Positions 13,902 through 14,657 of a stretch of DNA of 26,657 bases are shown in pieces. Source of the DNA: Candidatus Cloacimonadota bacterium (GTDB lineage Bacteria; Cloacimonadota; Cloacimonadia; Cloacimonadales; TCS61); contig DAISYT010000001.1 in assembly GCA_036825175.1 (NCBI GenBank), positions 1-26,657 of the forward strand, read 5' to 3'. The notes under the pieces are model-generated. The model was not told the DNA's origin. It saw only the letters and a program-made list of their open reading frames with translations, and searched no databases. The position numbers and the translations under genes are program-made. Position 1 is the stretch's first letter; the number at the start of each line of letters is the position of its first letter.

Positions 13902-14657
13902 TTATTTTATAGCAAATATTAATAAGAAACAAACCACCAGCGAATAGATCGCTGTAGATTCCGAAACTGCTGCTCCCAGAAACATGGTTCGCATTATTTT
14001 TGATTTTTCATTGGGAAATTTCCCCATCATTTCCGTTGATTTCCCGGCAACGTAACCGATGCCGTTTCCCGGGCCTAACGTTCCTATTCCAATCGTTAAT
14101 CCGGCAGCGATGAAAGCAACAGCTTTGAATAAAATCCTGCCCATACTCGCTTCTGTCGGTTGATTCGGCACGGAATACATCAGCAGAAAAGAAACAACCA
14201 GCGCAAAAATCGCCGAAGTCTGTGCCAACGCCTGACCGATGAGCATGTTTCCCATAATGGCGTTGCCTTGTTTGGGCATTCTTGCCACAGATTGGCAGGC
14301 TTGACCGCCGGTATAACCGGCTCCTAATGACGGTCCGATGGAACCGAGTCCCATTGCCAATCCGGCAGATAAATACGCCGCCGCTTTATACCAACCGCCC
14401 ACGGTATCGAAGCTGACACCATAAATCAGCAGCATGGAGATAACCAAAGCGAAAATGCCGGCGGTCTGGGCAGCAGCCTGACCGATAAGCATGGTTCTGA
14501 ATACCTGTTCGTTGGCTTTGGGTTGTTCCATCAGCCCGGTAACAGCTTTGGCAGAAATCACACCGGAACCGATACCTGTGGTAATAGATCCAACTCCCAC
14601 ACAGATTCCGGCTCCCAGATAGGCGGCAACTTTTATATATTCTGTAGCAAATATCAT
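13902..14657 (-). CDS. atpE: Triplicated (three-hairpin, about six-TM) Fo subunit c paralogue
   Basis: Three tandem c-type repeats, each with a glycine stripe, an xxP loop and an outer helix: GQAAAQTAGIF (Q64), GQALAQTSAIF (Q146), GAAVSESTAIY (E233). Confidence 0.93.
   Translation of the reverse strand: MIFATEYIKVAAYLGAGICVGVGSITTGIGSGVISAKAVTGLMEQPKANEQVFRTMLIGQAAAQTAGIFALVISMLLIYGVSFDTVGGWYKAAAYLSAGLAMGLGSIGPSLGAGYTGGQACQSVARMPKQGNAIMGNMLIGQALAQTSAIFALVVSFLLMYSVPNQPTEASMGRILFKAVAFIAAGLTIGIGTLGPGNGIGYVAGKSTEMMGKFPNEKSKIMRTMFLGAAVSESTAIYSLVVCFLLIFAIK

Follow-up and report, generated by a model that had tools for sequence, protein, structure and literature searches.

A three-hairpin c subunit in the F-type ATPase operon of a Cloacimonadota bacterium, with a glutamate that probably holds a proton rather than Na+

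The window analysed here, meaning the whole stretch of DNA, comprises 26,657 nucleotides from a Candidatus Cloacimonadota bacterium (GenBank assembly GCA_036825175.1, contig DAISYT010000001.1, positions 1 to 26,657). Its minus strand carries a rotary ATPase operon that is F-type by its Pfam matches, with the gene order AtpZ-like, atpI, a, triple c, small c, b, delta, alpha, gamma, beta, epsilon (Table 1). Two c subunits are thus encoded side by side: a three-hairpin protein, here called the triple c, and a single-hairpin protein, the small c. The genome is 97% complete and encodes a single F1Fo gene set and, because it contains only four c hairpins in total, this operon is its sole rotary ATPase. 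The element of interest is the third hairpin of the triple c, in which a glutamate (E233) is paired with an isoleucine (I200) where Na+-binding c subunits carry a polar residue. We propose that E233 is probably a proton-holding, dispensable carboxyl and not a Na+ site, and that the hydroxyl residues following it on the same helix would serve a different site, that of the small c.

The triple c belongs to the c-subunit family PF00137, which it matches in three stretches with 147.9 bits against a cut-off of 24. Its AlphaFold2 model consists of six long helices (predicted local distance difference test (pLDDT) 95, predicted template modelling (pTM) score 0.88) and superposes on Enterococcus hirae NtpK (2bl2_A; template modelling (TM) score 0.82, normalised to the target; root mean square deviation 3.1) and on V-type c chains. 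At the sequence level its hairpins are 40–49% identical to the adjoining F-type small c. The register between the two proteins was taken from an ungapped BLASTP alignment of the whole proteins together with profile columns. Residues 233–238 read E-S-T-A-I-Y, and the original prediction was right in placing I200, N198, the G228-A-A-V231 stretch and this motif within hairpin 3 of the 251-residue triple c, at the coordinates listed in Table 1.

Table 1 Genes, residues and proposed ion sites of the operon. Positions are those of the window; residue numbers refer to the triple c unless the small c is named.
Feature	Position	Strand	Remark
AtpZ-like small membrane protein gene	15972-16178	-	PF09527/PF03899 matches at operon head
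atpI	15568-15954	-	Operon head; PF03899 and PF09527 matched there (joint span 15568..16178)
Subunit a, 303 amino acids	14664..15575	-	PF00119; Arg245 within S-F-R-L-F-G-N
Triple c, three-hairpin (six-helix) F-type c subunit, 251 amino acids	13902..14657	-	Three PF00137 matches, E 9.9e-44
Small c, single-hairpin c subunit, 85 amino acids	13628..13885	-	PF00137
b, delta, alpha, gamma, beta, epsilon	8321..13579	-	Pfam matches
Hairpin 3, residues 166-251	13905..14162	-	49% identical to small c over 83 ungapped residues
S31	14565-14567	-	Hairpin 1, opposite small-c E33
Q64	14466..14468	-	Hairpin 1, without carboxylate in this genome
L144, T147, S148, F151 of hairpin 2 outer helix, with Q146 for carboxylate	14205..14228	-	Putative partners of E233 and I200
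N198 (AAC)	14064..14066	-	Variable position, no conserved ligand
I200 (ATC)	14058..14060	-	Opposite small-c E33 (Q/E32 of solved Na+ rings)
A229, Ala of GAAV (G228-A-A-V231)	13971..13973	-	Opposite small-c Q62
V231, S234, T235, Y238, B-side set of hairpin 3	13944..13967	-	Proposed partners of the Na+ site in the following hairpin (small-c E33/E66)
E233 (GAA)	13959..13961	-	Sole canonical ion-carrying position of the triple c with a carboxylate; opposite small-c E66
Register of small-c E33			S31 (hairpin 1), A113 (hairpin 2), I200 (hairpin 3)
Register of small-c Q62			Q60 (hairpin 1), Q142 (hairpin 2), A229 (hairpin 3)
Register of small-c E66			Q64 (hairpin 1), Q146 (hairpin 2), E233 (hairpin 3)
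Predicted site: B-side small c V64, S67, T68, Y71; A-side small c E33, E66			Full two-carboxylate Na+ site
Predicted site: B-side small c V64, S67, T68, Y71; A-side hairpin 1 S31, Q64			No carboxylate
Predicted site: B-side hairpin 1 A62, T65, A66, F69; A-side hairpin 2 A113, Q146			No carboxylate
Predicted site: B-side hairpin 2 L144, T147, S148, F151; A-side hairpin 3 I200, E233			E233 site
Predicted site: B-side hairpin 3 V231, S234, T235, Y238; A-side small c E33, E66			Full Na+ site

Ion sites in rings of this type are assembled from two neighbouring hairpins. In Ilyobacter tartaricus, Glu65 and Gln32 come from one subunit and Ser66, Val63 and Tyr70 from the adjacent one, and in NtpK, Glu139 and Gln110 are joined by Thr64, Leu61 and Tyr68 inside one four-helix subunit (both as outlined in PMC2359735). 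The two-carboxylate site of Fusobacterium nucleatum is split between subunits in the same manner, with the side chains of Glu32, Glu65, Ser66, Thr67 and Tyr70 and the carbonyl of Val63 as its ligands (summarised in PMC3692424). Each site of a c-ring thus has an A-side, consisting of inner-helix residue 32 and outer-helix Glu65 of one hairpin, and a B-side, consisting of the residue-63 carbonyl, Ser66, Thr67 (via water) and Tyr70 from the preceding hairpin. Because NtpK combines the Glu and Gln of its later hairpin with the Thr, Leu and Tyr of its earlier one, we take the B-side donor to be the hairpin that precedes in the N-terminal direction.

This register was examined on homologues. A search with the triple c gave 608 matches at E ≤ 0.001, of which the best 120 were taken; 107 of these, 240–262 amino acids long, were aligned, and the 13 left out were 3 shorter proteins and 10 of 322–408 amino acids. 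The test set comprised the triple-c set, the 10 four- or five-hairpin proteins and 37 Desulfobacterales loci (L035–L071 of the 80 loci kept, the other 43 being matches at the level of single hairpins that lie outside the test). A full B-side was defined as [ST][ST]xxY, and only junctions within one polypeptide were counted. The hairpin after a full B-side bears a Glu in 3 of 3 cases in the four- and five-hairpin proteins and in 14 of 14 in the Desulfobacterales loci. The opposite ring register, in which the B-side comes from the following hairpin, was rejected because it leaves full B-sides facing a Glu in only 1 of 107, 0 of 13 and 6 of 51 junctions. The rule is one-directional, because Glu-bearing hairpins after incomplete B-sides exist (88 of 220 triple-c junctions, nearly all of them the E233 case). 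The c1 subunit of Acetobacterium woodii obeys it as well: its first hairpin reads ...AVAETSGIF, with a Glu and with Phe at the Tyr position, and its last reads ...AVAQTTGIY, with no Glu and a full B-side.

Applied to hairpin 3, the rule divides the E-S-T-x-x-Y motif into what we infer to be two half-sites on one helix, belonging to two neighbouring sites, where the original prediction had read a single one. V231, S234, T235 and Y238 would serve as the B-side for the next hairpin, that is, for E33 and E66 of the small c. E233 would be the A-side of a separate site at the interface of hairpins 2 and 3, together with I200, the L144 carbonyl, T147, S148 and F151.

The two half-sites have different evolutionary histories. 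For the 107 homologues we counted changes on a tree built by a quick search without a mixture model; positions 31, 64, 147, 148, 198, 200 and 233 were removed from the tree alignment, positions 229, 234 and 238 stayed in it, and all change counts are minima. Position 234 is Ser in 107 of 107 with 0 changes, position 235 Thr in 105, position 238 Tyr in 106 and Trp in 1 (1 change), and position 231 Val in 104, a near-invariance that we attribute to the service of these residues as the B-side for the small c. Position 233 is Glu in 86, Gln in 20 and Ser in 1, with at least 10 changes, nearly all to Gln, which is isosteric and uncharged.

The E233 site retains part of the canonical Na+ ligand set. 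The Glu at position 65 is present as E233, and the Ser/Thr66 hydroxyl and residue-63 carbonyl from the preceding hairpin would be supplied by T147 and L144 (position 147 is Thr in 89, Ser in 8 and Ala in 10 homologues, hence Thr or Ser in 97; L144 is kept in 106, and Q146 likewise in 106, one homologue having Glu there). Two ligands are missing. The Gln or Glu at position 32 is replaced by I200, and position 200 is Ile in 102, Val in 4 and Asn in 1, with at least 3 changes, so that on this alignment Ile200 is a fixed family trait and not a chance substitution. The Tyr70 of the neighbouring hairpin is replaced by F151, which is Phe in all 107. Because the inner polar ligand and the Tyr are lost, the site is probably not competent for Na+ at physiological Na+ concentrations. 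This bears out the part of the original prediction that E233, lacking an inner-helix polar ligand, is unlikely to bind Na+ in the manner of the small c; the two options it drew from the missing ligand, an H+-preferring site or a three-hairpin gap, are both live.

The literature on ion selectivity points in the same direction. Na+ sites are rich in polar groups and more hydrophobic sites are more H+-selective (as reviewed in parts of PMC7594442 and PMC3692424); c subunits that miss one or more Na+ ligands have been predicted to be proton-only, and in the absence of Na+ the Na+ enzymes transport H+ (both in the account given by PMC2359735). The carboxyl of E233 most likely would carry a proton through the lipid phase. 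Kaim et al. are said to have found in 1997 that the Q32I exchange in the c subunit of Propionigenium modestum abolished coupling to Na+ but not to Li+ or H+. A 1997 study by these authors that probes these ligands through mutation is cited in PMC9292931.

E233 also appears to be dispensable, given its at least 10 changes on the tree, its equal retention with or without a Glu in hairpin 1, and the 10 of 107 triple c proteins in which all three canonical positions are without a carboxylate. Hairpin 1 is itself variable: position 64 is Glu in 55, Gln in 42 and Gly in 10 homologues, and position 31 is Ser in 47, Glu in 45, Val in 9, Thr in 4 and Leu in 2. A full Glu31/Glu64 pair occurs in 45 of the 107; this genome has Ser31/Gln64. 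The idea that E233 is retained since a triple c needs one site was rejected, because E233 is kept in 44 of the 55 proteins with Glu64 and in 42 of the 52 without it. On supported branches, 6 independent pairs have unlike residues at position 233; hairpin 1 is mostly in the same state in both members of a pair, which leaves no trend to test there, and likewise none for a link between the T147 hydroxyl and E233.

What a proton-holding E233 would do at the stator can be narrowed less far. It may exchange its proton at subunit a, adding one H+ per triple c per turn to the Na+ carried by the small c, or it may stay neutral and behave as Gln does in hairpins 1 and 2, which are ion-blind. We lean modestly towards exchange, because E233 lies at the canonical Arg-facing position and Arg245 is present in subunit a, and the neutral alternative retains a substantial share of the weight. 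Arg245 is presumably the conserved stator Arg, by its motif. In either case, the triple c would introduce two certainly ion-blind positions and one non-Na+ position into a Na+ rotor. A ring of mixed ions, with the two-carboxylate Na+ sites of the small c and one H+-only site (E233/I200) per triple c, is a tentative proposal that we consider somewhat doubtful as a whole.

Several observations weigh against a proton-holding, dispensable E233. With E233 itself, the T147 hydroxyl and the L144 carbonyl in place, and with S148 (Ser in 85 of 107) available to hold a water, three direct ligands plus water could give weak Na+ binding. Position 148 is otherwise Asp in 16, Gly in 5 and Ala in 1, and its Ser is better conserved than its hairpin 1 counterpart (Gly in 64, Ala in 41, Ser in 2), which faces an always-dead site; this hints at a residual function of the E233 site. 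The Asp of the 16 homologues, always accompanied by E233, could supply a second carboxylate. Position 233 is under constraint, because Glu persists there in 80% of the homologues although identity within the family is down to about 50%, and no residues other than E, Q and S are seen. Incomplete B-sides also precede Glu-bearing hairpins in 22 of the 92 non-full Desulfobacterales junctions. The 107 homologues are interrelated, so counts among them overstate independence. Finally, the ring order in which the small c follows hairpin 3, the stoichiometry, the ion preference and the protonation state are steps that we infer from the residues, their conservation and the A-side/B-side rule.

The strongest competitor builds on these points: E233 would form a working Na+ site of lower affinity, in which water, or D148 in relatives, replaces Gln/Glu32, so that one Na+ is carried per turn by each triple c. 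The genome looks Na+-based, and E233, T147, S148 and the L144 carbonyl are all there. Even so, we judge this unlikely. The predicted and known Na+ c subunits summarised in PMC2359735 all retain Gln/Glu32, whereas this pocket has a bulky Ile in nearly every homologue and Phe at the Tyr70 position throughout, and E233 has been exchanged for Gln repeatedly while E66 of the small c is invariant in 30 of 30 loci. The reported Q32I result for P. modestum likewise speaks for a loss of Na+ coupling. S148 itself lies at 14214-14216, and where its place is taken by Asp a second carboxylate may be present at the hairpin 2/3 site; the association of Asp148 with Glu233 is not significant once relatedness is considered.

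The proposal that E233 holds a proton within a Na+ rotor presupposes that the two c subunits share a ring. We compared 30 genomic loci, in all of which the triple c and small c genes adjoin. The small-c motif E33, V64, E66, S67, T68 and Y71 is invariant in 30 of 30 and corresponds to the ligand set of a two-carboxylate Na+ c subunit of the F. nucleatum type, and hairpin 3 likewise has V-S-T-Y in 30 of 30, the same residues as V64, S67, T68 and Y71 of the small c. In the outer helix, hairpin 3 and the small c have 21 of 30 residues in common, of which only 8 are encoded by the same codon, at a nucleotide identity of 64%. Gene conversion was rejected on these figures as the source of the likeness; selection at the protein level maintains the shared V-S-T-Y. 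Sharing of a ring is further suggested because a ring of triple c alone would put the hairpin 3 B-side before hairpin 1, which is carboxylate-free in 52 of 107.

Complex prediction lends weak support to co-assembly. The triple c and small c scored 0.57 and the best of 3 controls 0.00, a pass that the solved structure 4BEM may explain. For calibration, 116 of 157 solved complexes attain the pass mark, as do 2 of 215 mismatched pairs; the passes at scores of 0.60 or below comprise only 18 of these complexes together with both mismatched pairs. Agreement between runs is at least 96% of contacts, partner pLDDT is at least 84, and the prediction does not discriminate on which side of the triple c the small c sits.

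Were the triple c to lie outside the small-c ring, as a ring of its own or as an assembly or regulatory factor, the cross-subunit A-side/B-side reading would be void. We consider this very improbable. In its favour, the score just given for the complex is modest. Set against that, a 97% complete genome has one F1Fo set and four c hairpins only, the gene pair is adjacent in every locus and occurs in 13 of 15 sampled families, and the V-S-T-Y of hairpin 3 would, with triple c as the only ring protein, face a hairpin 1 that has no carboxylate in this genome as well as in the 52 homologues. In addition, A. woodii c1, the nearest relative with a solved structure, is part of a mixed ring (4bem; described in PMC9171764).

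The least probable alternative, that N198 replaces the inner-helix ligand in a re-wired Na+ site, as the original prediction suggested, was rejected: Asn could ligate Na+ and N198 is on the same helix two residues before I200, but position 198 is Thr in 41, Ala in 21, Ser in 19, Ile in 14, Met in 6 and Asn in only 3 of 107 homologues, with at least 41 changes (no other counted position has as many), Asn occurs in 1 of 30 loci and two same-genus genomes (L008, L012) carry Thr, and by helix geometry a residue at i-2 should lie about 200 degrees round the helix from position 200. N198 is, on this evidence, a local substitution at a hypervariable position. The replacement of GQAV by GAAV, which had been taken as a further sign of a changed site, was dropped as a marker because the Na+-binding c2/3 and the Glu-bearing, active hairpin of c1 in A. 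woodii also have GAAV; position 229 is Ala in 99, Ser in 7 and Gly in 1 of the 107, with at least 6 changes.

Multi-hairpin F-type c subunits are also found elsewhere. Desulfobacterales and Desulfatiglandales encode forms with three or four hairpins (L035–L071; for example, L043:3501-4779 on the Desulfosarcina alkanivorans PL12 chromosome). In most of these 37 loci a small two-carboxylate c open reading frame of 80–84 amino acids (mostly 82) follows; two loci have none, and five others have a longer call (107–174 amino acids). Writing each hairpin as residues 33 and 66, then 64, 67, 68 and 71 after a colon, one Desulfobacterales pattern is EE:ISAF, xQ:VTPF, GQ:ITPL, EE:VSTY and another is EE, xQ, NQ:VSTY, [L/V/E]E:VSTY; further forms have a dead last hairpin that retains V-S-T-Y. 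In the four-hairpin c subunits of L054, L063, L064, L067 and L068, the last hairpin combines Leu or Val at the Gln/Glu32 position with Glu65, and the hairpin before it is dead and carries a full V-S-T-Y B-side. Because of these hydrophobic-32 plus Glu65 hairpins, the Ile200/Glu233 combination has parallels, in which the partner side is complete. Among the matches of the triple-c search, the ten longer proteins include five-hairpin c subunits of 404–408 amino acids; in one of these (P0076) all five canonical positions lack Glu, and S-T-Y is kept on the last hairpin.

The triple c with its adjoining small c is widespread across Cloacimonadota. The triple c was matched in 81 of 151 sampled genomes and in 13 of 15 families of the phylum, and the homologues that bear a source name are nearly all from Cloacimonadota or Cloacimonetes. 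In the largest sampled family (f3) only 2 of 69 genomes matched, weakly, and in family f5 none of 2. This patchiness agrees with a split described in PMC12590816, in which the enzyme is F-type in one clade of Cloacimonadota and V/A-type in the other. The genome studied here also encodes Rnf/Nqr-type subunits, an Na+-decarboxylase beta subunit and a membrane pyrophosphatase, a gene content that fits the sodium-based energetics assumed for the phylum in passages of PMC8542988 and PMC12590816. The triple c goes unmentioned in the consulted sections of these two papers and of a preprint (10.64898/2026.10.01.756066), and a literature search confined mainly to open-access articles found no publication on an F-type c subunit with three hairpins or on a c subunit from Cloacimonadota.

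Within the operon, the best Shine-Dalgarno sequence belongs to the small c (GGAGG, 4 bases 5' of the ATG; window 13886-13913), and that of the triple c is GGGAG, 11 bases 5' of its ATG (window 14658-14685); the stronger element of the small c is a hint that it may be made in excess over the triple c. In subunit a the Pfam match begins at residue 104, leaving an N-terminal extension of about 100 residues. Directly upstream of the operon, at 16213-19609, are genes for a bactofilin, an M23 peptidase, ParB, ParA and a GidB/RsmG methyltransferase; we take this neighbourhood to be typical of a chromosome origin region. On the plus strand, an open reading frame of 279 amino acids without a Pfam match at E ≤ 1e-5 (19733-20572) lies upstream of TonB-like, ExbB and ExbD genes.

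The number and kind of ion sites in a c-ring set the number of ions used per ATP and hence the lowest gradient at which ATP can be made, a quantity that is central for fermenters such as Cloacimonadota, which live close to the thermodynamic limit. Across the phylum, the triple c adds two blind sites and a third whose carboxylate lies in a pocket that is apolar and has no Tyr. Should this pocket carry H+, two coupling ions would act on one rotor, and in a mixed-ion ring a single enzyme would draw on the sodium and proton gradients in one turn. Exchanges between E and Q, at least 10 at position 233 and others at hairpin 1, would then tune the ions per ATP stepwise across the phylum, and the hairpin 3 site would be a natural counterpart of the classic Q32I engineering experiment. 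With an idle pocket, roughly one quarter of a small ring would move past the stator ion-free, which would put ideas about torque to the test. Finally, the A-side/B-side split of E-S-T-x-x-Y offers a simple rule for reading the many three-, four- and five-hairpin c subunits in metagenomes.

Known c subunits reproduce parts of this arrangement. The triplicated A-type c of Methanocaldococcus jannaschii is likewise built from three copies of a two-helix hairpin (in the survey of PMC2359735). It differs in being archaeal and A-type and in lying outside an F-type operon, whereas the triple-c hairpins resemble an F-type small c. One site is lost in the M. jannaschii-type protein. E. hirae NtpK, from the V-type K ring (Protein Data Bank (PDB) 2BL2), is a fused c in which the Glu and Gln of the later hairpin meet the Thr, Tyr and carbonyl of the earlier one (described in PMC2359735); unlike the triple c, it is V-type, with two hairpins and a single site that has all its ligands, and its sequence identity to the triple c is about 25%. 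The H+-type sites of the Bacillus pseudofirmus OF4 ring resemble the E233 site in having a lone Glu among mainly apolar side chains, and are strongly H+-selective (as presented in PMC7594442). Rings of that type are uniform, whereas the E233 site would sit among Na+ sites, with Thr and Ser nearby. The two-carboxylate site of the F. nucleatum c11 ring (PDB 3ZK1) has the same ligand set as the small c, which matches 3zk1_A (ligands as listed in PMC3692424), whereas the E233 site has Ile for Glu32 and, on its B-side, Phe for Tyr70.

The closest counterpart is the hybrid rotor of the A. woodii Na+ F1Fo ATPase (PDB 4BEM), in which c1, with two hairpins and one site, is combined with c2/c3, the ring holding nine c2/3 and one c1 (stoichiometry as reported in PMC9171764). 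The best match of the triple c among solved structures is c1 (4bem_J; sequence E 1.2e-27 over residues 81-249, Foldseek E 2.3e-8). As there, an F-type operon encodes a multi-hairpin c beside a single-hairpin c of Na+ type, Gln stands in for the carboxylate in the ion-blind hairpins of the fused subunit (Q64 and Q146 here), and the last hairpin has a full T/S-T-x-x-Y B-side. The differences lie in the sites themselves: c1 has two hairpins, the first active (Gln and Glu) and the last dead, whereas the triple c has three, of which 1 and 2 are dead and the last combines a Glu with an apolar Ile and an incomplete B-side, a combination absent from c1. The small c is of the two-carboxylate kind (E33/E66), whereas A. 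woodii c2/3 has Gln at the E33 position. To our knowledge, the A. woodii rotor is the sole characterised bacterial mixed rotor, with one ion-blind site in eleven. The triple c and small c would be a variant of that hybrid rotor, and the new element here is the dissection at the level of individual sites.

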